From an uncultured virus (IMG/VR IMGVR_UViG_3300042505_000848) (lineage: Duplodnaviria; Heunggongvirae; Uroviricota; Caudoviricetes), in the IMG/VR virus record IMGVR_UViG_3300042505_000848: a DNA stretch of 64,000 bases, one strand, 5' to 3'. The translations under genes and the position numbers were made by a program. Positions 33,329-64,000 of the stretch are shown in pieces. Position 1 is the first letter of the stretch. Every line of letters starts with the position of its first letter. The notes under the pieces are model-generated. The model searched no databases and had not been told where the DNA came from. It saw nothing but the letters and a program-made list of their open reading frames with translations.

Positions 33329-34309
33329 ATGACACAAGACTTCACAAAGATACCATTCCATAACATAACAAGATTTGGTCAACGCACCATGTTGCATCGC
33401 CCGTTATTTTCTACCAGTTGGATTTTGGGCCGTTTCTGTAATTATAACTGTTCTTACTGTTGGCCCTATGCTAGATCGGACAAGGTAGATCACCAGCCTT
33501 TAGAAGTATATACTAATACTGTAGATGAAATCAAACGACAGGCTCGACTAAATGGCTTCAATGAATTCCATTGGAGTTTCAGTGGCGGTGAACCTACTGC
33601 TTACCGACAGCTACATGATTTGATTAAACACCTTGACGAAACAGAAAGCACATACCAAAGTATACACATGACAACCAATTTAAGTCCTGGAAGTAAATGG
33701 TGGAATACCTGGTGTGCCAACACAGCATTACTACAACGCAGAAGTATCACAGCATCATTTCATGATGAGTTTGCTCGAGAGCAGGAATTCGGTGACAAGT
33801 GTCTACAGTTATTGCATGAGCGTGTGCATGTCACAGTCAATCAAGTAATGGTCCCGGAAAAGTTTTATGAGCTTTATGAACGCATGTCTCGGCTACATGC
33901 TCGTGGAATCAATGTTACGCTCAAACCGCAAAGTGATCCTACAGCGAGTCGTGTAGTCGATGGCTACACAACAGAAATGATTGATCTATTACAGACTGGA
34001 TTTCCTCAAACATCACAAGGCGAAGACGTTTATCAAATAGCATTGTATGATACAGACAACAAAGAATATTTGTTCGATCAAGCAGAAAGATTTAATGCTT
34101 TTGGTTTTAACAAATTCCAAGGTTGGAGTTGCAATAGTGGGTATCAAAGTGTTATAATAAGAGGTAATGAAGTGAAACGATCATATAGCTGTCACGACCG
34201 ACTATTAGGAACACTAGAGAGCTTTGAGCTTTTTAAAAAACCAACAGTTTGTATAACACCTAGTTGTGTCAGCAGTGCTGATTCAAAGATACCAAAATGT
34301 ATAAACTAG
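33329..34309 (+). CDS. Radical SAM protein with a C-terminal Cys cluster (SPASM/twitch-like)
   Basis: CNYNCSYC, FSGGEPT, MTTN; C-terminal WSCNSG...SC...CITPSCVS. Confidence 0.92.
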   Translation: MTQDFTKIPFHNITRFGQRTMLHRPLFSTSWILGRFCNYNCSYCWPYARSDKVDHQPLEVYTNTVDEIKRQARLNGFNEFHWSFSGGEPTAYRQLHDLIKHLDETESTYQSIHMTTNLSPGSKWWNTWCANTALLQRRSITASFHDEFAREQEFGDKCLQLLHERVHVTVNQVMVPEKFYELYERMSRLHARGINVTLKPQSDPTASRVVDGYTTEMIDLLQTGFPQTSQGEDVYQIALYDTDNKEYLFDQAERFNAFGFNKFQGWSCNSGYQSVIIRGNEVKRSYSCHDRLLGTLESFELFKKPTVCITPSCVSSADSKIPKCIN

Positions 34310-35274
34310 AAAACATAAAAGACATACATCTAGAATTAACAAGTAAGTGTCAAGCACGATGCCCAATGTGTCCTCGCCGAGTTAACGGAGGGATACTAAA
34401 TCCTATTATGTCGTTAAATGAGATAACACTAGAACAATTTAAAGAATGGTTCTCAGATGAATTTATAAATCAACTGGATAGTCTGTTTATGTGCGGCAAT
34501 TTAGGTGATCCTATTATTGCTGAAGATTGTTTAGAGATATTTCAATACTTAAAAGAAACTAATCCTAACATACGATTGAGCATGCATACAAATGGTAGTG
34601 CTAGAAATATACACTGGTGGAAAAAATTAGCAAAGTATAAAGTTAAAGTTACATTTGGAATAGACGGTTTAGAAGATACACACAAGTTATATCGAATAAG
34701 CACTAATTGGAACACCATTATAAAAAATGCCGAGTCATTTATAAAAGCTGGTGGCGAAGCAGAATGGCACATGTTAGTGTTTAAGCATAACGAACATCAA
34801 ATTGAAGAATGCCGTGCGCTAAGTCACAAACTTGAATTTAAAAAATTCACAACCAAGCATACTAGTCGTTTTAAAGATAACAAATTTCATGTATTGGACG
34901 AAACCGGCAAGACTGTTAATATTCTTTATCCTACTAAACTTAGCACTTCACATACAGTAAATGTGTTGTCAGTATTACCAGCAGAGATACAATGCAAGGC
35001 AAAGAAATATAGTCAACTATACATAAGTGCAGACGGAGGAGTTAGTCCGTGTTGCTGGTTGGATTTTTCCTGGCAGTTGCCTAACCAGGACAATAGAATA
35101 AATTATATGGATAAAATTGGAGTTTATCCTAACCTAAATAAACAGTCGTTAATAGATATATTTAATTCTGGTTTCTTTAGTAAGATTGAAAGTACCTGGT
35201 CAGCCGTTCCTTTAATGGAATGCGGCAAACAATGTGGACATTTTGATAAGCTAGGAGAGCAATTTGTTAGTTGA
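34297..35274 (+). CDS. Radical SAM/SPASM protein
   Basis: CQARCPMC, GNLGDP, HTNG, IDG; C-terminal C...GGVSPCC...ECGKQC. Confidence 0.92.
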   Translation: MYKLENIKDIHLELTSKCQARCPMCPRRVNGGILNPIMSLNEITLEQFKEWFSDEFINQLDSLFMCGNLGDPIIAEDCLEIFQYLKETNPNIRLSMHTNGSARNIHWWKKLAKYKVKVTFGIDGLEDTHKLYRISTNWNTIIKNAESFIKAGGEAEWHMLVFKHNEHQIEECRALSHKLEFKKFTTKHTSRFKDNKFHVLDETGKTVNILYPTKLSTSHTVNVLSVLPAEIQCKAKKYSQLYISADGGVSPCCWLDFSWQLPNQDNRINYMDKIGVYPNLNKQSLIDIFNSGFFSKIESTWSAVPLMECGKQCGHFDKLGEQFVS

Positions 35275-35857
35275 TACAGAACACTTACATCACTGGATGC
35301 AAGCCATAAGACAAAGCCCAGATCCTATGAGGACCATGGATGCATTCTGGTCTGGACAACTTAAAAGCAAAGAATGGTTGATCTCAAATTTAAGAAAACA
35401 CATTAATAAATTTGTAGGTATTGATATACATGGTGGCTGGGTTGGTGTACTAGCCAGTATGTTGTTCCAAAGTGATATCCCTATTATTAATATTCGTAGT
35501 GTTGATATTGACCCTACCTGCGAATCTATTGCAGTTAACATGAACAAGATTGAAGAAATGGTTGGCAAGTTTCGTGCTGTCACAGCAGACATGTGTGCTC
35601 TTCGCAGTGATGCAGATGTCATTATCAACACCAGTTGTGAACACATAACACAAGACCAATATGACATATGGTTAAGCGGAATGCCACATAGCAGCCTACT
35701 AGCATTGCAAAGCAATAATTATAATATAGATGAACATGTTAGGATTGCTAACAGTTTAGAAGAGTTTAAAAAACAATGCCATCTGGACAATATTTTGTAT
35801 GCCGGGGAACTTGATTTGCCGTTGTACAAACGATTTATGATTATAGGAAAACAATGA
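35264..35857 (+). CDS. SAM-dependent methyltransferase-like protein
   Basis: IDIHGGWVG motif I, SVDIDP, ADM, INTSCEH; TTG start behind GGAGAG. Confidence 0.7.
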   Translation: MLVDTEHLHHWMQAIRQSPDPMRTMDAFWSGQLKSKEWLISNLRKHINKFVGIDIHGGWVGVLASMLFQSDIPIINIRSVDIDPTCESIAVNMNKIEEMVGKFRAVTADMCALRSDADVIINTSCEHITQDQYDIWLSGMPHSSLLALQSNNYNIDEHVRIANSLEEFKKQCHLDNILYAGELDLPLYKRFMIIGKQ

Positions 35858-36588
35858 TAGAATTAGGGTTAGTTAAATGGTATAATGACGCAAAGAGATA
35901 CGGGTTTATTAAAGCAGACTCGGATGGAGAATCTATTTTGGCACAGAGTCATTCTATTGTGGAAGAACCAAAGACTTTGAGAGAATTTCAACGTGTAACT
36001 TTTGAAAGATATGTAACTGATAATGGCCTAGAAGCACGTACTATAAATATCGCCATGAACCCAGATTTATCGATTTACGAACACGAAGTTATATCATTGA
36101 AAAAACAACGACTTCATCTTTCTTCATTTGTAGGACATGTCTTATTAGTGGTTAATACTGCCAGCCGATGCGGACTTACACCTCAGTACGAAGGATTAGA
36201 AAAATTATTTCAAAAATATAAAGATAAAAAATTTACAATCCTGGCATTTCCGACAAACAATTTCGCAGGACAGGAGCCTAATACAAATGCCGAAATTTTA
36301 GATTTTTGTGAGACAAATTATAATGTAAGTTTTTATGTTATGGAAAAATCAAATATTGTAGAACAGGATAGTTCAAGCCCTGCACAATTCGCCGAAACTG
36401 CACCTAGAGAAATAAATTCTTTTTATAAAGACCTTGCCACCAGAACAAATGTTTTACCGCAGTGGAATTTCCACAAGTATCTAATTAATCGTACGGGTTC
36501 TATTATTAAAAGTTTTGATCATTTGACTCAACCAGACAATGATGTATTAATTAACGCAATCGAAGAATTTTTGGATAGTAACGTATGA
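35854..36588 (+). CDS. Cold-shock domain / glutathione peroxidase fusion
   Basis: N-terminal GLVKWYNDAKRYGFI...KTLREFQRVTFE (CSD); C-terminal VVNTASRCGLTPQY, LAFPTNNF..QEP, WNFHKYLI (GPx). Confidence 0.85.
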   Translation: MIELGLVKWYNDAKRYGFIKADSDGESILAQSHSIVEEPKTLREFQRVTFERYVTDNGLEARTINIAMNPDLSIYEHEVISLKKQRLHLSSFVGHVLLVVNTASRCGLTPQYEGLEKLFQKYKDKKFTILAFPTNNFAGQEPNTNAEILDFCETNYNVSFYVMEKSNIVEQDSSSPAQFAETAPREINSFYKDLATRTNVLPQWNFHKYLINRTGSIIKSFDHLTQPDNDVLINAIEEFLDSNV

Positions 36589-37511
36589 AAATATTAATGA
36601 CTGGATCATCGGGATTTATCGGATCTCACTTAGCACCACTTTTAGAAAAAGACCACACAGTTCATCATCTCAAAAGCGATCTAACAGATCACAAGAGTGT
36701 TCAGCTAGAAGTAGCTTCTGTACAACCAGATATCATTGTGCACCTAGCTGCACGTACAGAAGTAGAACAAAGCTTCTATGAACAAATTACCTTTAGTGAA
36801 ATAAACTATATAGGAACAGTTAATTTAATTGAAGCAGCCGCCTCTGTTAAAAATTTAAAGAACTTTGTGTTTGCTAGTACTATGGAAGTTTATGGTTGGC
36901 AACCTATTAGTGATACTGTAAAAAATGGCGCCATACCTAAAGTATTTGAAACATTTGATGAGAACACTCAGCCTAACCCCAATGCTCCTTATTCTGTAGC
37001 CAAATATGGATGTGAGAAATATTTAGAATACGCTTACAGATGTTATGGATTGCCATTTACTGCTATACGTCAAACAAACAGCTATGGTCGTAAAGATAAC
37101 AAGTTTTTTGTTACAGAACAAATTATTAGTCAGATGCTAGAAAATTCCAAAGAAGTAAATCTTGGATATGCTGAACCATATAGAAATTTTATTTTTATTG
37201 ACGACCTATTAGATGCTTGGATTACAGTTATTACAAATCCTGATAAAGTAAACAGTGGACTAATACTTACTATTGGTCCTGATGCTCCTATAAAGATTAG
37301 GGATTATGCACAAAAAATTGCCAAAAAATTAAACTGGCAAGGAACGATTAATTGGGATACTAAATTGTTCAGGCCTGGGGAGATTTACTGGCTTAATAGC
37401 AATCACAATCTAATAACTAAATTAACTGGATGGTATCCTAAAGTCAGTTTAGACGAGGGGCTAGATCAAACTATTAAAATCTGGAAAGAAAAATATGATA
37501 GTAGAACATAA
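36585..37511 (+). CDS. NAD-dependent nucleotide-sugar epimerase/dehydratase
   Basis: TGSSGFIG, HLAA, STMEVYG, PYSVAK (YxxxK), RNFIFIDD. Confidence 0.9.
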   Translation: MKILMTGSSGFIGSHLAPLLEKDHTVHHLKSDLTDHKSVQLEVASVQPDIIVHLAARTEVEQSFYEQITFSEINYIGTVNLIEAAASVKNLKNFVFASTMEVYGWQPISDTVKNGAIPKVFETFDENTQPNPNAPYSVAKYGCEKYLEYAYRCYGLPFTAIRQTNSYGRKDNKFFVTEQIISQMLENSKEVNLGYAEPYRNFIFIDDLLDAWITVITNPDKVNSGLILTIGPDAPIKIRDYAQKIAKKLNWQGTINWDTKLFRPGEIYWLNSNHNLITKLTGWYPKVSLDEGLDQTIKIWKEKYDSRT

Positions 37512-38127
37512 GTTAAACGATGTACCGAGAATATCTGTTTTTGATAATGTACTATCTGCTGAATTTTGTAGAGGTATGATAGAAAAACATTCCAATGCTG
37601 GAATGAATTCTAATTCTGGTTATCAAAGTCGTGTTGAGTCGTATGCCCAAGTTACAGAAGAAGTTGAAAATAGAGGAATTAGTCTAGGTGTTGATCCCTA
37701 TGATTATGATATAATAGCAACAGCTATTGTTAATGTTGCTAAAATTCCATATTCTCACATAGAGGCTATTGATATTTACAACTATCACGAAGGACAGTAT
37801 CTAGCTTATCATCACGATTACTGTTATGACCCTAGACAAATCAACTATTATAAAAACGGTGGCGACAGAGTTGGAACCGGTATTTTTTATTTTAATGATG
37901 ATTTTGTAGGCGGAGAAACTTATTTTCCTAAATTTGATGTATCTATTACTCCTAAGACTGGTTCCTTTTTGTATTTTGAACAATGCTATGACGAAGCAAC
38001 TAATTGGGACACAATACACGAAAGCAAACTAATTACCAAAGGAACTAAGTGGATCGCTAGTTGCTTTTTTAGTGATAGGCCTAGAGTAGGATGGTCTAGT
38101 AGAGATCATTTGTATGCTAACGGATAA
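37495..38127 (+). CDS. Fe(II)/2OG oxygenase, prolyl-4-hydroxylase-like
   Basis: Y..GQY...HHD, GGDRVGT...YFND...GGETYFP, HES...GTKW. Confidence 0.88.
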   Translation: MIVEHKLNDVPRISVFDNVLSAEFCRGMIEKHSNAGMNSNSGYQSRVESYAQVTEEVENRGISLGVDPYDYDIIATAIVNVAKIPYSHIEAIDIYNYHEGQYLAYHHDYCYDPRQINYYKNGGDRVGTGIFYFNDDFVGGETYFPKFDVSITPKTGSFLYFEQCYDEATNWDTIHESKLITKGTKWIASCFFSDRPRVGWSSRDHLYANG

Positions 38128-38818
38128 TTGGATTCCTTTTTACAAATATAATGATCAAGGTGTGCCTGGATGCATGTCTCAGCAAACCTATGAACCGTTA
38201 ATAAATCCGGAAGGAACTGTATACTGTGCCAACTACGATCATAATAATCTGTATCAACGTAAATGGCAACCAGACCGTGTGGGTTACACTCAAGACATTG
38301 TTGAATATTTTTTTAACAAAGAAGTTGGATATGCACACAAATTTAGCAACAAGCTATGGGCGCCGGAAATTATAGATATAGATTATGTTAGCAAACGTAT
38401 TTTTTATAAATGGTATGGGCCCACTTGCAACGAATTAATATATACAGGCAGAACTTTACCATCTGATTGGAAATTACAACTTCGAAATATCATGATGGAT
38501 TGTTATAATGAAGGAGTTTACAAACTTACAATGTATCCACATTGTCATTACTATGATAACAGCGGAATTATGCACACGCTAGATATGTATGGGTGCGTTG
38601 AAGTAGATGATCCGTTTATTGAAGCAAAGTATATGGATGGGATAATTCACGAAACCGCTAAATTTAGACTAGACGAGACCGGACCTAAAAACAATAATAG
38701 ATATGATTTAGAAAAAATGTTCTTCAATAGTTTATGCACCCACGTAAAATGGGGAGAATGCGATTTAAATTTTGTCTATCAAAATATAATTGGAGATAGC
38801 GATGAAATATATAGGTAA
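38114..38818 (+). CDS. Hypothetical protein, atypical kinase-like fold (paralog of 49403-50098)
   Basis: KEV...APEIIDID...GVYKLTMYP...TLDMYG resembles kinase subdomains with a degenerate catalytic loop. Confidence 0.5.
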   Translation: MLTDNWIPFYKYNDQGVPGCMSQQTYEPLINPEGTVYCANYDHNNLYQRKWQPDRVGYTQDIVEYFFNKEVGYAHKFSNKLWAPEIIDIDYVSKRIFYKWYGPTCNELIYTGRTLPSDWKLQLRNIMMDCYNEGVYKLTMYPHCHYYDNSGIMHTLDMYGCVEVDDPFIEAKYMDGIIHETAKFRLDETGPKNNNRYDLEKMFFNSLCTHVKWGECDLNFVYQNIIGDSDEIYR

Positions 38819-39434
38819 CTGCGCAGATAAAATAGATTGGAATGAAGTAATTAAATTATGCCAAGAGAGCGTAACAGGAGATAGAAACACTGTGGTCTCT
38901 GTGGTTGAAAGATCCGAAGTTAATTTACAGAATCGAGAACCTATGCAGGCCAAGGTTTTATTGTCGGTAGCAGAACAAATAGCCAACGAACAATTGCTTC
39001 AAGAGTATAGAAAAGTGATAGGAGATTGGCGTGATGCTGGATGTGACCTGGATAAAATTTATTGGTATGATTACTATCCAGGGGATCATTATCCAGAAAG
39101 TATATCAGATACATTTGCTGCCATACTAGGAATTCGCCCATTAAGAGTTTTTGTAAGTGAAGTATATCCGGGTATTACAGTTCCCTATCACTGGGATGTA
39201 GAAGATAAGGGACCAGAATGGTTAAAAAAATACGGAATGCTTTATAGATATACCTGCTGTATAGATGTGCCGAGGGTCGGAAGTGTATTAATCGTTGACG
39301 ATCATTGTTTATATGATTTTAAGCAAGGAGACATTTTTGAATGGGATAGTTATAGAAACTATCATTCAGCTGCCAACGGCGGCGAACACATACAGTATTA
39401 TTTTCACATGTTAGGATATAAAATAAAATGTTAG
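38802..39434 (+). CDS. Fe(II)/2OG oxygenase (AspH-like cupin)
   Basis: PG...PYHWD...YHSAANGG facial triad; start set at ATG 38802. Confidence 0.75.
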   Translation: MKYIGNCADKIDWNEVIKLCQESVTGDRNTVVSVVERSEVNLQNREPMQAKVLLSVAEQIANEQLLQEYRKVIGDWRDAGCDLDKIYWYDYYPGDHYPESISDTFAAILGIRPLRVFVSEVYPGITVPYHWDVEDKGPEWLKKYGMLYRYTCCIDVPRVGSVLIVDDHCLYDFKQGDIFEWDSYRNYHSAANGGEHIQYYFHMLGYKIKC

Positions 39435-39973
39435 AAAGAGTTGGTAACTGTTCAAAAATTATAGATTGGAACGAAGTTATAAAAGAGATTGCTGAACAAC
39501 GACCGGCCTATATCGGACCTAGCCACAAGGAAGATGATCCAATTCCGGGCCTTAAAGAAGTAACAGATTTGTGGAAGCGTTCGGGATTCAAAACTGTTGC
39601 TGATGGTGGAACAGTGGAATGGGACATGTTTTTGCCTCATACAAATTTTAATATTTCTATCGCTGAAAAATTTTGTGAGTTTGTTGGATTGAAAACGTAT
39701 ACAAGCTGCTGGATTAGTAGAATAAATCCTGCACGTTGCTCACCTTGGCATTGGGATGTCCATGACGATGAAGTAAATTTATCTCAAAGAACAGACATAG
39801 TTCGATATCATTGTCATATAGGACAACCGACACACGGTCATGTTTTAATAGTAGATAATTTTTGTTTATATAAACAGCCTCAGGGAGAAATATATAAATG
39901 GCCATCTAGAACAACTTGGCATTGCGGATTAAACAGTGGGCTAACTCCGAAGTATCTTTTTAATATATGGTGA
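39428..39973 (+). CDS. Fe(II)/2OG oxygenase (AspH-like cupin), paralog of the preceding gene
   Basis: GNC..IDWNEVI shared N-terminus; PWHWD...WHCGLNSG. Confidence 0.75.
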   Translation: MLERVGNCSKIIDWNEVIKEIAEQRPAYIGPSHKEDDPIPGLKEVTDLWKRSGFKTVADGGTVEWDMFLPHTNFNISIAEKFCEFVGLKTYTSCWISRINPARCSPWHWDVHDDEVNLSQRTDIVRYHCHIGQPTHGHVLIVDNFCLYKQPQGEIYKWPSRTTWHCGLNSGLTPKYLFNIW

Positions 39974-39977
39974 TGAT

Positions 39978-40178
39978 ATGATCAATGAAAAATACAGTAA
40001 TGAAGATGTTCCTATTCAAGATACATTTTATATGCAAAAGTTTATGGAGATTCAACGTCAAAATGTTGTATTATCAAATAAACTACGAGACTTATATGAA
40101 ATTCTTGAGATCCGTGATGTTGTAGAAATGCATTTTGGGGATAAGTTTTTTAATATCTTAAATGATACACCTGCATGA
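39978..40178 (+). CDS. Small hypothetical protein (66 aa)
   Basis: Fills the gap within the operon; ATGA overlap with the next gene. Confidence 0.6.
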   Translation: MINEKYSNEDVPIQDTFYMQKFMEIQRQNVVLSNKLRDLYEILEIRDVVEMHFGDKFFNILNDTPA

Positions 40179-47139: not shown

Positions 47140-47144
47140 GGATA

Positions 47145-47175
47145 TATTTACACGAGTTATACTAGCACATAAATA
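47145..47175. promoter_or_regulatory. Divergent TAAATA late-promoter-like pair
   Basis: TAAATA-5 nt-ATG on minus (47145-47150) and TAAATA-4 nt-ATG on plus (47170-47175). Confidence 0.65.
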
Positions 47176-47179
47176 TTTC

Positions 47180-50120: not shown

Positions 50121-50125
50121 TTAAC

Positions 50126-56687: not shown

Positions 56688-56692
56688 ATTAA

Positions 56693-56721
56693 TAATTATC
56701 ATAAAAAAATTCAGTTAAATA
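56693..56721. promoter_or_regulatory. Divergent late-promoter-like pair (TAATTA minus, TAAATA plus)
   Basis: Each motif lies 5 nt before an ATG (56687 and 56727). Confidence 0.6.
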
Positions 56722-56726
56722 CAGAT

Positions 56727-57548
56727 ATGGCAAAATTAGCAATACCTCACATCGAATGGCACATTTCTCACTCTTGTAATTTTACCTGCGAATCCTGTGC
56801 CCATTTTTCTAATCATGGGCATTCTGGAGTGGTATCTAAAAATACCTTAGTTGAATGGTATTCAAATTGGAATCAACGGTTACTTCCAAGAGAAATAGAT
56901 CTATTAGGAGGAGAACCGTTACTTAATAAAGAAATACTAGACATTGTCTTAACAACTAGACAGATGTGGCCAGACAGTCAAATACGGTTAGTAACCAATG
57001 GTGTATTATTATCAAAGTTCCCAAATCTTCCAAAAGTATTAAAAGAAACAAACACAGCACTAGTAATATCAATGCACAGTGACCAAGAAGATTATTTAAG
57101 TAAAATGTCTAAAGTTTTTGATCTTGTCGATGATTGGAAGAGAGAATTTAATATAGATGTAAAGACTGTTGATTCTTACACCAACTGGTCAAAATTATAC
57201 AAAGGATACGGAAATAATATCGAACCTTATACTGACAACGATCCCAATCAGAGTTGGAACAATTGTATAACAGGGCAGGATTGTTTTCAATTATATCAAG
57301 GCAACATTTATAAATGCTCACCGTTGGCATATTTAAAACTACAAAAACAAAAATACAAATTATCTAATAAATGGGATCCATATTTAAATTACGAACCGTT
57401 GCGACCCACAGCTTCTAACGAAGAAGTAGAAGAATTTTTCAACAGAAAATCTGAACAATATTGCGGAATGTGTCCCAGTCGTCCCGTAAGTTTTTTAAAA
57501 AATAATCCTCTGCTGCCTAGGAAATTTTACAGGATAACACCACAATGA
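56727..57548 (+). CDS. Radical SAM protein with a C-terminal Cys cluster
   Basis: CNFTCESC, LLGGEPLL, VTNG; C....C...IYKC...CGMCP (related to 54944-55954). Confidence 0.92.
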   Translation: MAKLAIPHIEWHISHSCNFTCESCAHFSNHGHSGVVSKNTLVEWYSNWNQRLLPREIDLLGGEPLLNKEILDIVLTTRQMWPDSQIRLVTNGVLLSKFPNLPKVLKETNTALVISMHSDQEDYLSKMSKVFDLVDDWKREFNIDVKTVDSYTNWSKLYKGYGNNIEPYTDNDPNQSWNNCITGQDCFQLYQGNIYKCSPLAYLKLQKQKYKLSNKWDPYLNYEPLRPTASNEEVEEFFNRKSEQYCGMCPSRPVSFLKNNPLLPRKFYRITPQ

Positions 57549-58405
57549 TCGATCTACCTTATAAAAACGCAGGACCTATTAATGATCCTGAAGTGATTGA
57601 TTTTCTAAAAAAATGTCTGACAGACGGAGTTTCTTCTTTATATGATGATCAGGTACATAATAATTTTTTATCTAATTATGTGAATTGGATTAAATCGACA
57701 AAAAATAATCAAATCACAGGTATCGATTCTTTCACTAAATTTTGTTTTTCCAATGGAACATCGGAATCTTTTGACAAGTTTTATATGAGAAATAAAAATA
57801 AAAGATTTAGATGTTTCAAAGCAGAATATATCTATCATAGATTGGCCTGGAGAAATAGTTGGCCTGACTGGCAATACATCGAAGATTCACCGTTATCAGA
57901 AAACGATGCTGTGATAATAAGCCTGCCTTTTTCAGATACCGGTGACGAACATTATGGTATGAAAAATATTTTGAATCAATGTGATAAACTAGGAATTCCT
58001 GTCCTAATTGATTGTGCATATTTTGGTGTCTGTAACAATATAATATTTGATTTCAATCACGACTGTATCACTGATGTGGTTTTCAGCCTATCAAAAACTT
58101 TTCCTGTTGCTCATCTTAGAATAGGGATGAGACTAACAAGAACAGATGACGACGATACTTTATTTGTACATAACAAGATAGGATATGTTTCAAGATTATC
58201 GTCTTTTATAGGTAATCAATTAGTTACAAAATTTACTCCTGATCATATCTATAACAAATATCAAAACAAACAGTTTGATCTTTGTAATGATCTTGCTATA
58301 ACACCTAGCAAGTGTGTATTGTTTGGCATTGGGGACGATTCTTGGAATCAATATAATAGAGGCGGCCCAACAAATAGAGTGTGTCTAAATTCACACCTTA
58401 CTTAA
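57545..58405 (+). CDS. PLP-dependent fold-type I enzyme (aminotransferase/decarboxylase-like)
   Basis: GTSESF, VLIDCAYFG (Asp binding PLP), FSLSKTF (Schiff-base Lys), RIG. Confidence 0.78.
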   Translation: MIDLPYKNAGPINDPEVIDFLKKCLTDGVSSLYDDQVHNNFLSNYVNWIKSTKNNQITGIDSFTKFCFSNGTSESFDKFYMRNKNKRFRCFKAEYIYHRLAWRNSWPDWQYIEDSPLSENDAVIISLPFSDTGDEHYGMKNILNQCDKLGIPVLIDCAYFGVCNNIIFDFNHDCITDVVFSLSKTFPVAHLRIGMRLTRTDDDDTLFVHNKIGYVSRLSSFIGNQLVTKFTPDHIYNKYQNKQFDLCNDLAITPSKCVLFGIGDDSWNQYNRGGPTNRVCLNSHLT

Positions 58406-58417
58406 GATACGTATATT

Positions 58418-59584
58418 ATGAAAAAAGGCAAGATTATAAATTTTGAGTTGTTATGGGATATACAAGATGATCCCTGGCCGATCAAACTAAAAATAATATC
58501 TAAAGAAATGGAGGAAGCCGCCAGTAGAGGTTTTAATTTAATTATTGGAATAATGTTAGTGGAAGGCATAAGACCAATAGATACCCCAGAATTTCTTTCG
58601 TTTATGCATTCTCTCGAATCTCGAAGAAAAGAAATAGGCATCGATGAAATTATACTAGTAACCGGTTCTTCGGAAAATTTTAAAAATATTACTGTGCCCT
58701 ACAAATTATATCACTGCAATGTAAACTCTATCATTGCATATAATAGTTACAAAAATCTTTTAACACATCTTCCCACTTACCAACAACACAATAAAAAATT
58801 CTTATTTCTAACTGGAATAGCAACCCGACCAAATAGAATAGGTCTATTGAGTAAATTTTATGATAACAAATTATTAGATAATGCTGTTTGGTCATTTTTT
58901 TACCCAGCCACACCGGGTGATAGACAATGGTGTCGAGATTATCTCGATCACTATGATGATTCGGAATTTGAAAAATTTATTACCGATTGCCAGCGATCAG
59001 TTGACAATAGATATACTGAATACAACAAATTTCAAAGAGATGATTTCCAAAATCAAACAGACATAAATTGGCTAGACATAAGACACACAGAATTTTGTAA
59101 AAATGAAACCTTTATGGATTCTAAAATATTTCAAGACACAGCTTTTAGTATAATAAGTGAAAGCACAAACTATTGGGATAGAAATTTTGATTTTGTTACA
59201 GAAAAAACCTGGAGAACAGTCTTACATAGCCATCCTTTTATATTTGCAGGTGACCCAGATCAATTTGTATATTTGAAAAACTTAGGACTTAGAACTTTTG
59301 AAAATTATATGAAAATTAAAAATTATGCATATATCGAAGATGAAAATCTAAGATTAGATGCCATAGTAGAAAATACTAAAGATTTTTTAATTAACCATTC
59401 GAAATATTCTGAAAATATACAAAAAGACGTTCAGTATAATTTTTCCTTATTTTTAAATACAGTCGATGACGAATTAAAAAAACTTAAAAATTTAATGGCA
59501 GCGTATGGCGTTGATACGCTGGATGTCGATTATTACTTTGACCGTACAGGATTTGATCATTTGATAAGGATTCCAAATGGATAA
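58418..59584 (+). CDS. Hypothetical protein, glycosyltransferase-like C-terminus
   Basis: FLFLTG..RPNR, FSIISES...VTEKTWR...HPFI...LGLRTF; TEK motif as in GT10/GT-B-like families. Confidence 0.55.
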   Translation: MKKGKIINFELLWDIQDDPWPIKLKIISKEMEEAASRGFNLIIGIMLVEGIRPIDTPEFLSFMHSLESRRKEIGIDEIILVTGSSENFKNITVPYKLYHCNVNSIIAYNSYKNLLTHLPTYQQHNKKFLFLTGIATRPNRIGLLSKFYDNKLLDNAVWSFFYPATPGDRQWCRDYLDHYDDSEFEKFITDCQRSVDNRYTEYNKFQRDDFQNQTDINWLDIRHTEFCKNETFMDSKIFQDTAFSIISESTNYWDRNFDFVTEKTWRTVLHSHPFIFAGDPDQFVYLKNLGLRTFENYMKIKNYAYIEDENLRLDAIVENTKDFLINHSKYSENIQKDVQYNFSLFLNTVDDELKKLKNLMAAYGVDTLDVDYYFDRTGFDHLIRIPNG

Positions 59585-60758
59585 AGGTGCAATAATCAAT
59601 TTTGAATGGTTGCGAGACTGCAATTACTATGCGGAAGATGAATTCAAAAATCTAAAATTACAACTGATAGAAAAAGAAATTCAAAAAGCAAGTAAAGATG
59701 GATGCAATGTAATTGTCGGAATTTATCTCATGGATGGGTTCTTGCCCTATAGTAAAGAACAATTTTCATTGGAAATGAGAGAAATACAAGATATTTTAGA
59801 AAAATATAATATTAAAAAGATATTAATTATATCCGGGCACGGTGAAACAATAGGGGATATAGGATTGCCTTATTGTTATTTTGATTACACTTTAAGAATG
59901 ACTTATAACGGATATAGAGACATTTTTTCCGAGATACCGAAATATGAAAGTAAAAAAAATAAAAATTTTTTATTGTTAGGAGGAAATTCTGCCAGACCTA
60001 ACCGAATTGGTTTATTCAGTAAATTTTACGAAGAAAAAATGTTTAACAGAGGTGTATGGACTTTTTTCCCTCCAGATACAGAGAGTGACAAAAAATATTG
60101 TAGAAATTATCTTTCTCATTGGAGTGATAATCAATATCAAGAATTTTTAGATTTCTGTCACCGATCTCTAGATGACAAATATTCAAATGCATCGTGTTAT
60201 TTGGGAGATCAAAATAATCAAAAAGAAGATAAAATTTTTTACGATTTAGTCAATGAGGAATGGACTAAAAATATGGTTTATTTAGATCCGTTGATTTTTT
60301 CTGAAACAAGTTTTAGTGTGATTACAGAAGGTCCAAATCATTGGAGAGATAACCATTATTTTGTTACAGAAAAAACCTGGAGAACGATTCTTCATCAACA
60401 TCCTTTTATCTTGGTAGGACACTCGGAACAACTTTTATATTTAGAAAAATTGGGATTTAAAACTTTTTTAAATTACATGAAAGTACCCGACTACGCCTGG
60501 ATACAATCAGACGAGGAAAAATTTCAAGCGGTTGTAGAAAATACCAAACATTTTTTAGACATTCAAGATGAATTTAATGATCAAATAAAGAGGGACGTCA
60601 TACATAATTATAATCTCCTTTTAGAAAAAATCAAAGATCAAGAAATATTTTTTAATTTTTTAAAAACTGAATATTATGTTTCGACAGAAGATATAGAGTA
60701 TTATCTTGATCGAAAAGGTTATGATCAACTTATAAGGAATCCTGCCAATGGAATCTAA
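59577..60758 (+). CDS. Tandem paralog of 58418-59584
   Basis: Colinear similarity (IINFE, RPNRIGL.SKFY, CR.YL.H, VTEKTWR). Confidence 0.55.
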   Translation: MDKGAIINFEWLRDCNYYAEDEFKNLKLQLIEKEIQKASKDGCNVIVGIYLMDGFLPYSKEQFSLEMREIQDILEKYNIKKILIISGHGETIGDIGLPYCYFDYTLRMTYNGYRDIFSEIPKYESKKNKNFLLLGGNSARPNRIGLFSKFYEEKMFNRGVWTFFPPDTESDKKYCRNYLSHWSDNQYQEFLDFCHRSLDDKYSNASCYLGDQNNQKEDKIFYDLVNEEWTKNMVYLDPLIFSETSFSVITEGPNHWRDNHYFVTEKTWRTILHQHPFILVGHSEQLLYLEKLGFKTFLNYMKVPDYAWIQSDEEKFQAVVENTKHFLDIQDEFNDQIKRDVIHNYNLLLEKIKDQEIFFNFLKTEYYVSTEDIEYYLDRKGYDQLIRNPANGI

Positions 60759-61674
60759 ATGTGCAGCTTTCTGGCACCATACCAATATTCGCAGCGATGA
60801 CAGGATTTTTCCTTGTTGTAGATTTAAAAATCCTATTGCTAAATTTGATGGGAATATTTCACAGGTATTATTTTTAAAAGAATATGATGAACTAAGAAAA
60901 CAAAGTATTGATAACATACCCATCAAAGGTTGTGAAAAATGTTATCACGAAGAGAAGATAGGAAAAAAAAGCCTTAGACAAGAGTTCAATGAGATTTACG
61001 ATTTTGAAACAATTTCTATGGAATATTTAGAAATAGGCTTCGACAATATCTGTAATTTAACCTGTGATGGGTGTTATGAAGAATTCAGCTCTGCTTGGGG
61101 TAAATTAAAATATCCCAGAGCGGAAAAAACGATACACATTAAATCTACTCAAGAAATCATCGAACTTCCCAATTCGTTAAAGAAAGTTTTGTTTTTGGGA
61201 GGTGAACCATTGATGACTAATCGACATCAAAAATTTCTAAATATTGTAAAAGATAAATCTAACGTAGAAATTGTATATAACACTAATGGTACTTTTTTAC
61301 TAGATAAAAATACAATAGATCTTCTCGAACAATTTAAAACAGTTTTGTTTATTGTCAGTATAGATGGTTTTAAAGATTTAAATGAACAGGTTCGAGGCGG
61401 AAGTAAATGGGGACAAATTGTTGAATTTATTCGGCAGATTAAAACAACAAAATTTAATCTTTCCGTAAATACAGTTGTACATACTAATAATTGGTTTGGA
61501 TTGAAAGAATTAGAACAATACATAGAAGAAATAAATGTGCCTTGGACAATAAATTTTGTAACATATCCTACGCATTTAGACCTTATCAATGTTAAAGAAA
61601 AACACGATCTTATTAACTTATTGAAATCAATAAAGACTGTAAATCTTGAATATATTATAAATCATGTTAATTGA
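60748..61674 (+). CDS. Radical SAM protein with an N-terminal twitch/SPASM-like domain
   Basis: KCAAFW...PCC...CEKC, then CNLTCDGC, LGGEPL, NTNG, SIDG. Confidence 0.92.
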   Translation: MESKCAAFWHHTNIRSDDRIFPCCRFKNPIAKFDGNISQVLFLKEYDELRKQSIDNIPIKGCEKCYHEEKIGKKSLRQEFNEIYDFETISMEYLEIGFDNICNLTCDGCYEEFSSAWGKLKYPRAEKTIHIKSTQEIIELPNSLKKVLFLGGEPLMTNRHQKFLNIVKDKSNVEIVYNTNGTFLLDKNTIDLLEQFKTVLFIVSIDGFKDLNEQVRGGSKWGQIVEFIRQIKTTKFNLSVNTVVHTNNWFGLKELEQYIEEINVPWTINFVTYPTHLDLINVKEKHDLINLLKSIKTVNLEYIINHVN

Positions 61675-61777
61675 AATAGAACGATACACCGATTTTAGAA
61701 ATCTTGAAGATTTGCACAAAACTGCACAAACCCTTATATCTAATACCAATTATGAGAATTGATAAGGATTTTATTAA

Positions 61778-62371
61778 ATGAAAAAAGCAATATCGCAAGA
61801 TTGTTATACTGCACCACAGATGATTACGGAATGCGTAAAAATTTTTAAGGATGAGATGAAAAATTTTCAGAACATCAGTGAGCATTTAATAAATGTTTTA
61901 GATTTTGATGATTCTCCCGACCTTACTGAAATCCTACCAAGAGATAGAACTAATATCTCAATATATGTTATTTTTTTATACGATCACTCACATATTACTA
62001 CAGATGAAATACAAAGAAAATTTCCCAAAACTAGAGAATATGTTCAAACCATGCCCGGAGTTAGTACGTTAAAATGTATAGCTATAGGCCCGAATTCTAT
62101 AGTTCCGTTGCATCTAGATGATATGAGTCGAGCACCTTACGATTTAAACAACTGGTATAGTGTATTCACCGGAGTAACTGTTCCTAGTGAGAGTGCAGAT
62201 TTAATTGGTGTCAAGGTAGATAATGATATATACAATCATGCCGAAGCGGAATCTATTGTTTTTGATACACAGATTCCACACTGCGCCTGGAATAACACTG
62301 ATCAATGGTGGATCAGTTTAAGATTTAGCACAAATAAAGAAAATTTTCAAAATGTTAATATCGTCAAATAA
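61778..62371 (+). CDS. Fe(II)/2OG oxygenase (AspH-like)
   Basis: IGPNSIVPLHLD...FD...PHCAWN; TAAGGA SD. Confidence 0.78.
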   Translation: MKKAISQDCYTAPQMITECVKIFKDEMKNFQNISEHLINVLDFDDSPDLTEILPRDRTNISIYVIFLYDHSHITTDEIQRKFPKTREYVQTMPGVSTLKCIAIGPNSIVPLHLDDMSRAPYDLNNWYSVFTGVTVPSESADLIGVKVDNDIYNHAEAESIVFDTQIPHCAWNNTDQWWISLRFSTNKENFQNVNIVK

Positions 62372-63413
62372 TCATTGGGACCAATTAGAAGAAATAGTTG
62401 TTGGGATAGCAACCAACGCTAGAGTTCCGACTGTAGATGTAAGTACCATGAATATGTGTTATAGTAATTATTCTGTGGATCAAATAAAAAATCTAGAGGG
62501 ACAATATCCTCAATGGTTAATAGATGAAGCCAATGAAGATATGCAAGTATTATCGGATACACTTTCTTCTCTTGGAATCAAAGTTCATCGGCCAAAAATA
62601 ATTGATCATAGTAAAAAATTCAGCACTCCGGAATGGCAAACCACAGGATGGTATACTTGGTGTCCAAGAGACTTGTTGTTACCTCTCAATAATTTAATGA
62701 TAGAAACCCCAAGTCCTTGTAGGGCCAGATATTTTGAAACTCGTGCGTATCACGATATCATGATAGAAGCAGTAAATGATGGAGTCGAATGGATCGCTGC
62801 TCCAAAGCCTATATTGTCAGATGACAGCTATCAGTTTATAGATATAAAAGAAAAACCAAGTCTTCTTAATTTAGAACCAGTTTTTGATGCTCCTAATTGT
62901 ATACGATTAGGCAAAGACATTCTTTTTCAAATTAGCAATACTGGAAATCATCTAGGAATGAAATGGTTAAAAAATGTATTAGAAAGAAGAGGATACAGAG
63001 TTCACGCAGCGGAGCATATATACAGCTTCGCTCACATGGACAGCACCATAATTCCGTTAAGACCTGGATTGGTTTTATTGAATAGCACTAGAGTTACTCC
63101 AGAAAACTGTCCTAAATTATTCGATAAGTGGGATAAAATTTATTTCCAAGATGTAGCCCAGACCGCTGTCCCAACGAGCGGCCCTGGCTCAGTGAGTCCC
63201 TGCAGCCCTTATATAGGAATGAACATATTAAGTGTAAATCCCAATACTGTGATAGTAGGAAAAGACCAAATATCTCTAATAAAAGTTTTAGAATCAAAAG
63301 GGTTTACTGTAATTCCAATGCCTATGAGACACGCTCGAACACTCAGTGGAGGATTTCATTGTGCCACATTAGACCTTAGAAGAAAAGGTTCCTTAGAGGA
63401 TTACTTTCAATGA
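62352..63413 (+). CDS. Amidinotransferase (glycine / inosamine-phosphate amidinotransferase family)
   Basis: N.WDQLEEIVVG, CPRD, FDAPN, HMDST, LSGGFHCATLD: the Cys-His-Asp triad is present. Confidence 0.9.
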   Translation: MLISSNNHWDQLEEIVVGIATNARVPTVDVSTMNMCYSNYSVDQIKNLEGQYPQWLIDEANEDMQVLSDTLSSLGIKVHRPKIIDHSKKFSTPEWQTTGWYTWCPRDLLLPLNNLMIETPSPCRARYFETRAYHDIMIEAVNDGVEWIAAPKPILSDDSYQFIDIKEKPSLLNLEPVFDAPNCIRLGKDILFQISNTGNHLGMKWLKNVLERRGYRVHAAEHIYSFAHMDSTIIPLRPGLVLLNSTRVTPENCPKLFDKWDKIYFQDVAQTAVPTSGPGSVSPCSPYIGMNILSVNPNTVIVGKDQISLIKVLESKGFTVIPMPMRHARTLSGGFHCATLDLRRKGSLEDYFQ

Positions 63414-63892
63414 AAGGATATCATGGACAAATAGAAGATTTTTGGTCTGACTATTTACAAAATTTTGTTTATAAGCAACAAATACCTTACTCAGGAATGA
63501 GAGAATCTTGGCACGAAAATTTTGGTAATGGGCATCTCTTGCAGAGTTTTGATGATCAGTTACCACCAATATGGAAAAACTTTCAGTCTTCTCTAAGTGT
63601 ATCTAACGGTACTGTGGGTTGGATCAACATTCGACCTAACCAAATCATTGCACCACATTTTGATCATTTTTATACTTTAAAACAAAAATTAGGAACCACT
63701 ATCGAACATTGTGTAAGATATTTAATATTTTTAGAAGATTGGAAATTTGGTCAGTATATAGAATTTGAAGATCTTTCTATTAGAAAATGGAAAAAAGGTG
63801 ACGTTTGGTATTTCGATCATACTGAAGAGCATTGGGCCGTCAATGCAAGTAACTTTGATTTTCACACTTGTCAGGTCAACACAATAAAATGA
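63410..63892 (+). CDS. Fe(II)/2OG oxygenase-like cupin
   Basis: IRPNQIIAPHFD...RYLIFLEDW..GQ...EHWAVN. Confidence 0.75.
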   Translation: MKGYHGQIEDFWSDYLQNFVYKQQIPYSGMRESWHENFGNGHLLQSFDDQLPPIWKNFQSSLSVSNGTVGWINIRPNQIIAPHFDHFYTLKQKLGTTIEHCVRYLIFLEDWKFGQYIEFEDLSIRKWKKGDVWYFDHTEEHWAVNASNFDFHTCQVNTIK

Positions 63893-64000
63893 AATCCATA
63901 TACTTTTTTCAATGTAATTATTCCGCTAAATTTGGCGAAAAAACGCAGTACTGGCTTCCGTATTCAGTTGGGTGTCTTTGGGCGTATGCTCAACAGTTTG
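63889..64000 (+). CDS. 5' fragment of a probable cobalamin-dependent radical SAM protein
   Basis: Hand translation MKSIYFFQCNYSAKFGEKTQYWLPYSVGCLWAYAQQF; P.SVG.L.AY resembles the start of a B12-binding domain; ATGA overlap; truncated by the window edge. Confidence 0.5.
   Translation, partial: MKSIYFFQCNYSAKFGEKTQYWLPYSVGCLWAYAQQF

Follow-up and report, generated by a model that had tools for sequence, protein, structure and literature searches.

The DNA analyzed here (the window; 64,000 nucleotides) comprises bases 196,848-260,847 of the 281,658-bp IMG/VR record IMGVR_UViG_3300042505_000848 of an uncultured virus, a linear record with an estimated completeness of 80%. From position 33,329 on, it harbors an island of 36 complete open reading frames (ORFs) and one more that crosses the window edge (g01-g37), in which 13 putative radical S-adenosylmethionine (SAM) genes are interleaved with putative Fe(II)/2-oxoglutarate (2OG) oxygenases and with three proteins of predicted glycosyltransferase fold. 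The island spans ~32.4 kb and ends at the window-equivalent position ~65,697, 1.7 kb beyond the window. The original prediction, made from the letters of the window, had described the block as still open at the window edge; this does not hold, since in the genome read past that edge the gene after g37, on the other strand, encodes an Mtd_N tail-fiber-like protein. Tail-fiber-like genes flank the island on both sides, and the first 19 kb of the window encodes fiber/baseplate-type giants of 1393, 1625, 596 and 2485 aa, which carry Mtd_N and T4 gp9/10 N-terminal domains. Only three intergenic gaps in the island exceed 30 bp, and its ORFs form at least seven alternating strand blocks. None of the 37 ORFs matched a structural, replication, or non-ribosomal peptide synthetase/polyketide synthase family in Pfam, NCBIfam or PHROGs, in agreement with the original prediction. 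Membrane, flippase and export proteins were likewise not found among the 37 proteins, and since none of them contains a 19-residue window with a Kyte-Doolittle hydropathy of 1.7 or more, all are predicted to be soluble. The G+C content is 0.41-0.47 in the first 32 kb of the window and 0.29-0.38 in the island; such a break at the island border would fit a hypervariable region that was acquired or evolves separately.

The record is a T4-like myovirus of 282 kb. In the rest of the record (115 proteins), a PHROGs scan recovered the full T4-type gene set, including virion genes (major head protein, portal, prohead protease, sheath, tube, baseplate wedge and baseplate hub), a gp55-type late sigma factor, genes for replication and repair (UvsX, UvsY, gp32-type SSB, DnaB-type helicase, primase, DNA polymerase, clamp loader and SbcCD), PhoH and an endolysin. 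Nothing points to a chimera or to host DNA: 20 lake-water metagenome runs match 10 kb of the island at 100% of the sampled words, contigs of four lake runs aligned to window positions 22,000-41,999 at even depth, and in three of these four runs a single mismatch-free contig spans the left border at 33,329. No RNA run carrying the island stretch was seen among the run matches.

Judged by family and motif matches, 13 island proteins are predicted members of the radical SAM superfamily. All 12 radical SAM genes that had been named in the original prediction match PF04055 at E <= 2e-6, and the PF04055 gathering score (29.5 bits) is exceeded by 12 of the 13 proteins, g11 scoring 28.7 bits. The motif CX3CX2C occurs in each of the 13 and in none of the 24 other island proteins. 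The B12-type start that had been proposed at 63889 proved to belong to a 609-aa radical SAM protein (g37) with a sub-threshold B12-binding match. The 13 putative genes are:

33329..34309, plus strand: g01, radical SAM protein (326 aa, CNYNCSYC; PF04055 44.8 bits)
34297..35274, plus strand: g02, radical SAM protein with a C-terminal SPASM domain (325 aa; PF04055 45.2 bits, SPASM 29.2 bits, phrog_21308 77.8 bits)
40175..41575, plus strand: g10, N-terminal-twitch radical SAM protein of family NF033640 (466 aa; N_Twi_rSAM 406.8 bits)
41523..42617, minus strand: g11, radical SAM protein with an N-terminal SPASM/twitch-like domain (SPASM 48.1 bits, PF04055 28.7 bits)
42607..43713, minus strand: g12, radical SAM protein (368 aa; PF04055 45.6 bits)
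43710..44603, minus strand: g13, radical SAM protein (297 aa; PF04055 48.8 bits)
44596..45873, minus strand: g14, N-terminal-twitch radical SAM protein (NF033640, 314.5 bits)
50941..52095, plus strand: g23, N-terminal-twitch radical SAM protein (NF033640, 216.6 bits)
52549..53724, plus strand: g25, N-terminal-twitch radical SAM protein (NF033640, 232.7 bits; its start had earlier been placed at 52570)
54944..55978, minus strand: g27, radical SAM protein (344 aa; PF04055 40.9 bits, Fer4_12 31.6 bits)
56727..57548, plus strand: g29, radical SAM protein, ortholog of ORF306 of the cultured phage S-SCSM2R (273 aa; PF04055 37.7 bits)
60748..61674, plus strand: g33, N-terminal-twitch radical SAM protein, C-terminally short (NF033640, 202.3 bits)
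63868..64000, plus strand, continuing 1.7 kb past the window: g37, start of a B12-type radical SAM protein and last gene of the island (full ORF L001:16-1842, 609 aa)

NF033640 (N_Twi_rSAM) is defined by a whole-protein cut-off of 170 bits and describes proteins with a Cys-rich, twitch-type domain N-terminal to the radical SAM core. Five island proteins (g10, g14, g23, g25 and g33) score 202-407 bits against it, while g11 (62 bits) and g02 (58 bits) fall outside. The SPASM Pfam matches of the twitch proteins, at residues 21-99, 17-77 and 31-81, also lie N-terminal to the core. The family profile has no close solved relative; over its N-terminal part it matches BtrN in the twitch region (E 4e-4). 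Among the remaining proteins, g01, g12 and g13 are mutual paralogs (g12-g13, E 2e-25), whereas g27 and g29 stand apart from the other island members by BLAST and NCBIfam; g25 is 36% identical to g23. Besides its PF04055 match (48.8 bits), g37 has a B12-binding match of 26 bits, below the cut-off of 32.1, and its best NCBIfam match is the KedN5-type B12 radical SAM C-methyltransferase (NF033712), at 191 bits versus a cut-off of 700; its architecture thus looks B12-radical-SAM-like, but membership in the KedN5 subfamily fails. In the whole record we counted 19 PF04055 genes, 13 of them in the island, and nine copies of NF033640 (202-407 bits), five in the island and four in a second radical SAM island described below.

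The original prediction also listed nine oxygenases with an HxD...H motif. From their sequences, we regard four of them as firm (g06, g28, g34 and g36), four as probable (g08, g09, g17 and g24), and g22, which has the HxD...H pattern alone, as possible:

37495..38127, plus strand: g06, Fe(II)/2OG oxygenase of a prolyl-4-hydroxylase-type Pfam family (2OG-FeII_Oxy_3 37.5 bits; phrog_61)
38790..39434, plus strand: g08, probable cupin-type oxygenase (paralogous to g09 and g24; invariant H134xD136...H192)
39428..39973, plus strand: g09, probable cupin-type oxygenase (on the same basis as g08, namely BLAST links, invariant HxD...H and hhalign)
47180..47848, plus strand: g17, probable Asp/Arg-hydroxylase-like oxygenase (invariant H81xD83...H125; hhalign E 1.9e-3, probability 14%)
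50126..50941, plus strand: g22, possible oxygenase (invariant H178xD180...H202/H237)
52083..52580, plus strand: g24, probable Asp/Arg-hydroxylase-like oxygenase (BLAST link to g36 at 1e-5; PF05118 13 bits)
55929..56702, minus strand: g28, Asp/Arg beta-hydroxylase-family oxygenase (PF05118 31.8 bits)
61778..62371, plus strand: g34, Asp/Arg beta-hydroxylase-family oxygenase (PF05118 44.4 bits)
63410..63892, plus strand: g36, Asp/Arg beta-hydroxylase-family oxygenase (PF05118 27.4 bits)

Membership in PF05118 (Asp_Arg_Hydrox) was taken as a score above 22.6 bits together with the HxD...H iron triad, and g34, g28 and g36 belong to the family under this definition; the best NCBIfam match of g34 is OlsC (46.5 bits, far under the cut-off of 450). 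The four probable members are linked to Asp_Arg_Hydrox by weak profile-profile matches that align the HxD motif (E 3.4e-4 and 1.9e-3), by paralogy and by an Atlas lead. The first of these values comes from the hhalign comparison of the g08/g09 set with the Asp_Arg_Hydrox set, at a probability of 38%. The ORF of g17 opens at 47096, but its likely start is 47180; the Atlas record, which begins at residue 29, matches viral clusters carrying PF05118 at 0.96. For g22, hhalign gave E 0.0099 at a probability of 4%, and its profile matched nothing among PDB sequences.

Three further island proteins have predicted glycosyltransferase folds (g26, g31 and g32), and another is an enzyme of nucleoside diphosphate (NDP)-sugar metabolism:

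58418..59584, plus strand: g31, GT-B-fold glycosyltransferase-like protein (AF2 model, pLDDT 90.8)
59577..60758, plus strand: g32, paralog of g31 (39% identical, BLAST)
53721..54947, minus strand: g26, two-domain protein with a GT-A-like N-domain and a class I methyltransferase-like C-domain (AF2 model, pLDDT 90.7)
36585..37511, plus strand: g05, NDP-sugar 4,6-dehydratase/epimerase (Epimerase 139.5 bits, GDP_Man_Dehyd 138.5 bits)

Although g31 and g32 have no Pfam match, and the g31 profile found nothing meaningful among PDB sequences, 49 of the top 50 VIA matches to the g31 model have the GT-B fold (Z 8.7-10.8), comprising 48 glycosyltransferases and one UDP-GlcNAc 2-epimerase, the 50th being a respiratory-complex chain. 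The top match, tied with many others, is T4 AGT (1y6f; Z 10.8, 269 aa, rmsd 5.9), and the best Foldseek E-value is 2.2e-3. The model therefore points to a GT-B fold for g31 and, by paralogy, for g32; the original prediction had called these two paralogs glycosyltransferase-like. The N-domain of g26 resembles the PBCV-1 capsid glycosyltransferase (2p6w; VIA Z 10.0, 164 aa, rmsd 3.7) and STIV A197 (Z 9.9), with nucleotidyltransferases of the same fold at Z 8-9, and its C-domain (residues ~225-387) resembles methyltransferases (Z 8-9); Foldseek gave LH3 (2e-4) and METTL6 (2.4e-4). The g26 family has an invariant D108 and a consensus LDRGD in the alignment. Its full length is shared only with uncharacterized proteins of uncultured phages (BFVD), and its profile found nothing meaningful among PDB sequences. 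The epimerase of the original prediction is firm, at 139 bits; the best NCBIfam match of g05 is LegB (126 bits, below the cut-off of 475).

Scanning viral contigs with g10 gave 87 confirmed relatives among 91 candidates, and we kept 80 loci, each covering at most 10 kb on either side of g10. This most conserved gene of the island is 57-100% identical in all 80 of them, and g01, g13 and g03 were matched in 77, 73 and 72, respectively; paralog cross-matches inflate some of these per-gene counts. Recurring members, in shuffled order, are g01, g02, g03, g10, g12, g13, g14, g16, g17, g07-g09 and g20-g22, while g04 and g05 occur in only 9 of the 80 loci, so that the comparison of synteny suggested by the original prediction separates a recurring core from variable members. 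A protein search with g10 gave 4,207 matches among 8,000 scored candidates, the best 120 being mostly 84-89% identical (range 83-100%) and lying on contigs of up to 384 kb. Related fragments of 186, 119 and 82 kb contain 16, 9 and 15 PF04055 matches. Stretches of 19.7 kb and 24 kb from the window, compared by megablast with a phage collection, returned no match, and tblastn of g10 in the same collection only matches of 23-25% identity in four records. A single-protein scan of genome contigs gave two loci, one of which was set aside as an ordinary C-terminal SPASM radical SAM protein.

For the 15 measurable genes, the median dN/dS per gene lies at 0.04-0.10 (Nei-Gojobori, orthologs of 70-97% identity; 0.078 for g10 and 0.065 for g14), figures that are rough as dS is near saturation. 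These genes are under strong purifying selection, and relaxed selection is excluded. The many homologs of g10 (>4,000) and the high identity of most of the best 120 indicate that the pathway is widespread, old and under selection. Together with the T4-like record and the bridged border, the 80 recurring loci and the dN/dS values support the proposal of a phage-encoded multi-step modification pathway in the original prediction. The same comparison bears on the possibility that there is no single pathway here, the island being a hypervariable store of independent auxiliary metabolic genes for conditions of low oxygen or iron stress. The lower G+C content of the island relative to the rest of the window, its seven or more strand switches and the varying gene content and order among relatives would fit such a store, and Timms et al. 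(2010, PMC2853527, in the portion available) suggested a metabolic-fitness role for a related module in Campylobacter phage CP220. However, a defined core recurs together, neighboring genes overlap or leave hardly any space between them, a sub-module is syntenic with the distant cultured phage S-SCSM2R, and the presence of paralog families of few enzyme types argues for a common substrate class. We regard this as the least probable of the readings considered here.

The remaining island genes and a short ORF between them are:

35264..35857, plus strand: g03, core protein, methyltransferase-like as a lead (Atlas 0.95 to a viral cluster in which 21% of members carry Methyltransf_31)
35854..36588, plus strand: g04, cold-shock domain fused to glutathione peroxidase (GSHPx 101.8 bits, CSD 37.7 bits)
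38114..38818, plus strand: g07, perhaps kinase-like, paralog of g21 (family profile against PDB, weak: Ser/Thr kinases E 1.4e-3, Bud32 8e-3)
39978..40178, plus strand: conserved ORF of 66 aa immediately upstream of g10 (present in 16 of the 80 loci by tblastn at E < 1e-5)
45833..46453, minus strand: g15, SGNH/GDSL-like hydrolase (GDSL families in four of six orthologs scanned, one over the cut-off, 30.9 vs 23.6)
46426..47262, minus strand: g16, PP-loop ATPase, QueC-like (QueC 24.1 bits, cut-off 22; ATP_bind_3 24.2 bits)
47790..48287, plus strand: g18, short Rossmann protein resembling short-chain dehydrogenases/reductases (SDR; adh_short 23.9 bits, below 26.6; paralog of g19)
48280..48879, plus strand: g19, short SDR-like Rossmann protein (weak NCBIfam/Pfam SDR matches)
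48853..49467, minus strand: g20, conserved protein (13-sequence alignment, 67% mean column identity)
49403..50098, minus strand: g21, perhaps kinase-like, paralog of g07 (paralogy, weak profile match)
57545..58405, plus strand: g30, possibly a pyridoxal phosphate (PLP) enzyme (weak matches: Aminotran_1_2 16.6 bits, E 0.0048; CobD-type 18.6 bits)
62352..63413, plus strand: g35, amidinotransferase-like protein of the pentein superfamily (ADI 17.3 bits; phrog_25854 134 bits)

Several of these had been named in the original prediction, which fares unevenly here. The QueC-like ATPase stands, g16 passing the Pfam cut-off and QueC being matched in four of five orthologs, with the QueC-type match C-terminal; its best NCBIfam match is only the TilS N-domain, at 31 bits. 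The SGNH protein is supported through its orthologs, the window copy of g15 itself having no GDSL match. The amidinotransferase is weak in Pfam, but g35 shares 35% identity with a phage protein annotated as an amidinotransferase. For the PLP enzyme, the two SDRs and the kinase-like pair the matches are weak (g07 has none in Pfam), and for the methyltransferase at 35264 the Atlas lead is all there is, g03 matching nothing in Pfam, PHROGs or NCBIfam. No match was found for g20 in PDB, Pfam or PHROGs. The 66-aa ORF is conserved over its whole length, with a helical look and a fixed C-terminal D/C-T/x-P-A end.

The oxygenases, g26 and the 66-aa ORF are relevant to a rival explanation, namely direct modification of protein or peptide, either of side chains in the giant fibers or other virion proteins or of an unseen ribosomal peptide. 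The radical SAM proteins, the Asp/Arg-type and prolyl-hydroxylase-type oxygenases, methyltransferases, the kinase-like proteins and an arginine-deiminase-like enzyme would carry it out, and the glycosyltransferases would then act on residues that had been hydroxylated, in the way that collagen is first hydroxylated and then glycosylated. The presence of PF05118 and 2OG-FeII_Oxy_3 oxygenases speaks for it, as do the SPASM/twitch domains and the many weak NCBIfam matches to peptide maturases, the resemblance of g26 to the glycosyltransferase domains of LH3, COLGALT1 and Mimivirus R699 (Foldseek E 2e-4 to 2e-3), the company that g26 keeps with oxygenase g28 (also in loci L032, L039 and L052), the predicted solubility of all island enzymes, the position near the fiber proteins of 1393, 1625, 596 and 2485 aa, and the conserved ORF upstream of g10. 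However, this ORF, the one conserved small ORF left over in the island, lacks leader/core features, occurs in 16 of the 80 loci and is not fixed beside one radical SAM gene, since it adjoins g18 instead in loci L016-L018. No RRE/PqqD domain, protease or transporter was found among the 37 proteins (E <= 0.01), and the island does not qualify as a cluster for peptides that are made by the ribosome and modified after translation. Collagen-like repeats are essentially absent from the large fiber proteins (one short run in 25 proteins of at least 550 aa), and the bacterial contexts of NF033640, described below, are polysaccharide loci rather than peptide loci. Direct protein modification thus appears to us rather unlikely.

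Elsewhere in the record, a second radical SAM island (G000:C1 ~142,400-152,600; L003:2405-12608) lies directly behind tail-fiber genes and contains a GT2-like protein of 769 aa, the four NF033640 proteins over the cut-off mentioned above, one other radical SAM protein, an SGNH-like protein and a methyltransferase. In the window, at 23099-23959 (minus strand), is a gene for KdsA (Kdo-8-phosphate synthase; equivalog, 406 bits vs a cut-off of 242), which sits beside UvdE and 6-pyruvoyl tetrahydropterin synthase (PTPS) genes, and PHROGs matches elsewhere in the record include heptose kinase/adenylyltransferase, NDP-sugar epimerases, a cytidylyltransferase and a carbamoyltransferase. An IscA-like protein, IscU and an Fe/Mn superoxide dismutase are encoded in a row at 19795..21041 on the minus strand (Fe-S_biosyn 62.4, NifU_N 183.2 and Sod_Fe_C 82.5 bits); with the glutathione peroxidase fusion g04 they plausibly support the Fe-S load of the 19 radical SAM proteins, a link that we infer from their co-occurrence. 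Neither IscS nor a Fer2 ferredoxin was found in the record.

The record also contains divergent FolE-, QueD- and QueE-like genes, scattered and outside the island: a QueD-like PTPS at window 24144-24668 (minus strand), a FolE-like GTP cyclohydrolase I at G000:C1:162231-162974 (minus strand) and a QueE-like radical SAM protein at G000:C1:157653-158504 (minus strand), all below the curated NCBIfam cut-offs. By these matches a 7-deazaguanine pathway in this phage is possible but unproven. Next to FolE, a 354-aa protein (G000:C1:163017-164078; L004:3018-4079, minus strand) was tried as a DpdA candidate and rejected as a jumbo-phage glycosyltransferase-like protein, sharing 45-50% identity with jumbo-phage proteins (Sinorhizobium phage Phosso, Pseudomonas PA5oct group), of which some are annotated as glycosyltransferase family 4. 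These genes, with the QueC/PP-loop-like g16, raise the question whether the island hypermodifies phage DNA or nucleotides (for example to a derivative of 7-deazaguanine, or to a base that is glycosylated or amino-acylated) against host nucleases. The tied top match of g31 to the T4 DNA alpha-glucosyltransferase would agree with this, as would CP220, which has a related radical SAM/amidinotransferase module and whose DNA is fully modified with 7-amido-7-deazaguanine (bioRxiv 10.1101/2023.04.13.536721, in the part available); radical SAM, PLP and kinase enzymes are moreover known, from excerpts of the literature, in thymidine hypermodification. However, no DpdA-type transglycosylase (TGT/DpdA, PF01702; DUF6610, PF20314) was found in the 282-kb record, which covers ~80% of the genome, in a search that had no model for the DpdA3 subfamily. 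The ThyA-type hydroxymethylase (PF00303) was not found in the record either, and the presence of ThyX suggests ordinary thymidine. The record accordingly shows neither the DpdA signature of phage 7-deazaguanine DNA modification nor PF00303 or PF12851 (Tet_JBP) for T4-type hydroxymethylpyrimidine glycosylation, although the absence of Tet_JBP carries little weight because that search matched no control genome either. The candidate deazaguanine genes, furthermore, lie outside the island, and 13 radical SAM proteins are far above any known DNA-modification pathway. DNA hypermodification is therefore very unlikely in our assessment.

Outside phages, a search of 301 Acidobacteriota genomes recovered NF033640 from 4-6 of them, and four contexts were examined. 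One genome has at least eight NF033640 paralogs within ~75 kb of a polysaccharide locus that contains eight SGNH proteins (two with CBM_4_9 at E <= 1e-5), NTP_transferase, Wzm/Wzt, GT1/GT2/GT4 and PMT_2, and also a B12-radical SAM protein, epimerases and a sugar C-methyltransferase. In another of the genomes, a copy that scores below the cut-off adjoins Wzm/Wzt and a giant WbsX/GT1/GT2 protein.

Taken together, we consider that, with a probability of about 50%, the island encodes a set of phage-borne, soluble, cytoplasmic enzymes that make and edit an unusual sugar or short glycan. This reading is based on the three predicted glycosyltransferase folds, the NDP-sugar dehydratase/epimerase g05 and the SGNH-like g15; on a sub-module in common with the glycosyltransferase-rich cluster of S-SCSM2R, and the CP220 module with its NDP-sugar-transferase-like genes; on bacterial NF033640 genes that lie in polysaccharide loci in two of the four genomes examined; and on the further sugar genes of the phage (KdsA and others) and the position of the island between tail-fiber-like genes. 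The original prediction had left a broad list of products, which the folds, g05, the SGNH protein and the S-SCSM2R and bacterial contexts narrow toward carbohydrate chemistry. Twitch radical SAM enzymes (BtrN and HygY), B12-radical SAM enzymes (GenK/GenD1) and an amidinotransferase (StrB1) act on aminoglycoside sugars.

The data show which genes the island contains, their predicted folds, how they are conserved and selected, and the contexts in which they lie; the individual reactions, the sugar as their substrate and the acceptor we infer. The 4,6-dehydratase/epimerase, the SDR-like, PLP-like and amidinotransferase-like enzymes and the PP-loop ATPase may prepare amino or deoxy sugars, on which the 13 radical SAM proteins could perform oxygen-independent C-H chemistry (oxidation, epimerization or C-methylation, for example) and approximately nine Fe(II)/2OG oxygenases could put on hydroxyl groups. 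The methyltransferase and SGNH modules would then attach or trim small groups, and the three glycosyltransferase-fold proteins would hand the product to an acceptor, while IscU, IscA, superoxide dismutase and the glutathione peroxidase fusion might supply and protect the Fe-S clusters. The likeliest acceptors are the fiber or virion proteins of the phage itself, because both radical SAM islands abut tail-fiber genes and membrane, flippase and export proteins are lacking; failing that, the product may go to a host envelope glycan through host machinery.

Several points weigh against a sugar pathway. The fold matches of the predicted glycosyltransferases are middling (Z ~10; Foldseek E only 2e-3 for g31). 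The core (g01, g02, g03, g10, g12, g13, g14, g16 and g17) includes no glycosyltransferase, nucleotidyltransferase or firm NDP-sugar enzyme, as the glycosyltransferases and the epimerase lie in the variable part of the island, and no sugar-1-phosphate nucleotidyltransferase was found in the island as a whole. Proteins and lipids are the best-known substrates of the Asp/Arg-hydroxylase family, and SPASM/twitch radical SAM enzymes are also typical peptide maturases. In the Acidobacteriota genomes searched NF033640 is rare, and its two best-scoring copies are uninformative singletons, which make up two of the four contexts. The T4 late-promoter motif TATAAATA is not enriched in the window (2 seen vs 6.7 expected) and thus gives no support for co-expression with virion genes.

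A diffusible small molecule of the aminoglycoside/aminocyclitol type, or another pseudo-sugar, made in the infected cell and acting against competitors or as a signal or cofactor, would be another product. With its twitch radical SAM proteins, B12-type radical SAM protein, PLP-like enzyme, SDR-like proteins, amidinotransferase-like enzyme, kinase-like proteins, GT-B-fold proteins and 2OG oxygenases, the island kit resembles aminoglycoside clusters. The tight link to tail-fiber genes at two genome sites and the strong shuffling of gene content, however, would be expected of a surface structure rather than of a single invariable metabolite, the island has no membrane protein, and no cyclitol-forming enzyme, resistance gene or exporter appeared in the Pfam/NCBIfam tables of the 37 proteins, no search having been aimed at them. 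The label "antibiotic synthesis genes" given to the shared genes by the authors of the S-SCSM2R genome (2025; PMC12801897, in the portion available) favors this product, which we nevertheless hold to be quite unlikely.

Returning to the sugar reading, we tentatively suggest, at well below even odds, a more specific form of it, in which oxygen-sensitive radical chemistry rewrites the sugars of a glycan that the phage puts on its own tail fibers or other virion proteins, NF033640 representing a new carbohydrate-editing class. The NF033640 enzymes might then be epimerases, dehydrogenases or C-alkylases, for example, acting on NDP-sugars or on the assembled glycan, with the twitch radical SAM proteins working beside oxygen-dependent hydroxylases; the phage's own Fe-S scaffold and defense against reactive oxygen species could keep the radical SAM enzymes running in oxic lake water, and paralog shuffling could diversify the virion surface in the arms race in which phage and host compete over recognition. 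Should the sugar reading be true, it would point to new radical carbohydrate chemistry and, in lakes and oceans, to a layer of phage-surface or host-envelope biology that is still unexplored.

Some observations concern the surroundings of these genes. A GTTAAATAC-like word precedes g01 and g29; we rejected it as a general promoter, as only 7 of its 22 copies in the genome lie within 60 nt upstream of an ORF. A tRNA scan of the window found none. The 408-bp gap before the island contains a 63-aa Lys/Ala/Glu-rich ORF (32923-33114, minus strand) with a histone-H1-like or DNA-binding look, and a single ORF of 4,605 aa, outside the PHROGs scan, lies in the baseplate/fiber region at G000:C1:114475-128292 (plus strand).

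Among cultured phages, homologs of g35 were found in 15 phage records, and the closest comparison is with the Synechococcus phage S-SCSM2R, like the present one a T4-like aquatic phage. Its radical SAM protein ORF306 is 44% identical to g29 (262 aa, E 1.7e-67), its "inosamine amidinotransferase" 35% identical to g35, and its small 2OG oxygenase ORF308 31% identical to g36 and g24. These shared genes lie amid five annotated glycosyltransferases, ORF301-310 being annotated as a 2OG oxygenase, three glycosyltransferases, a PLP enzyme of the DegT/AHBA type, a radical SAM protein, a glycosyltransferase, a 2OG oxygenase, the amidinotransferase and a GT2 protein. On the other hand, S-SCSM2R has two PF04055 matches in 244 kb, as opposed to 19 here, and no array of N-terminal-twitch radical SAM genes. 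Because the homologous sub-module is present in a cultured cyanophage (host Synechococcus WH7803), its product and target are testable.

The island also agrees with the CP220/CPt10 type of module, in that at least five clustered radical SAM genes accompany a pentein-type amidinotransferase in a T4-like phage. CP220 and CPt10 have 11-12 radical SAM genes, including a module of five with a "glycine amidinotransferase", to which the available text of Timms et al. (2010, PMC2853527) assigns no function; we counted 11 by PF04055 in CP220. The CP220 protein gp086 is 30% identical to g35 (E 1e-46), and the gene order there, behind baseplate genes, is four radical SAM genes, a small ORF, the amidinotransferase, a fifth radical SAM gene and two NDP-sugar-transferase-like genes. 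However, the CP220 radical SAM proteins are only 22-31% identical to those of the island over partial lengths, the stretch viewed has no run of 2OG oxygenases, and the host and habitat are different.

Our literature search found no report on the N-terminal-twitch radical SAM family in phages or polysaccharide loci, and NF033640 has no assigned reaction. Nor does a characterized pathway match the gene set, as the original prediction had held; the kind of island, however, is already in print. Multi-radical-SAM modules in T4-like phages have appeared in 2010, 2017, 2020 and 2025, none with an assigned product in the portions of those papers available, and the present island is a large example of this noticed but uncharacterized kind. 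In the host recognition cluster of pelagi- and cyanomyophages, lipopolysaccharide-type glycosyltransferases are found, with radical SAM cassettes in some genomes (Zaragoza-Solas et al. 2020, PMC7029224, in the part available). Compared by position and content rather than by its defining flanks VrlC and gp14, that cluster is likewise a large hypervariable island in the structural/tail-fiber region of T4-like aquatic phages, but the present island is rich in radical SAM proteins and oxygenases rather than glycosyltransferases and contains no fiber gene. Nishimura et al. (2017, PMC5332604, in the part available) described a 183-kb T4-like environmental genome with 12 radical SAM genes and an A-type carrier and/or IscU, and put forward the idea that Fe-S assembly genes in phages work for the Fe-S enzymes that the phages encode. 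That genome is marine and the present phage is from a lake, and the likeness is one of gene content rather than of compared sequences. With 19 radical SAM genes, the present record is among the highest counts seen in one phage record, its own relatives having 9-16 on fragments.

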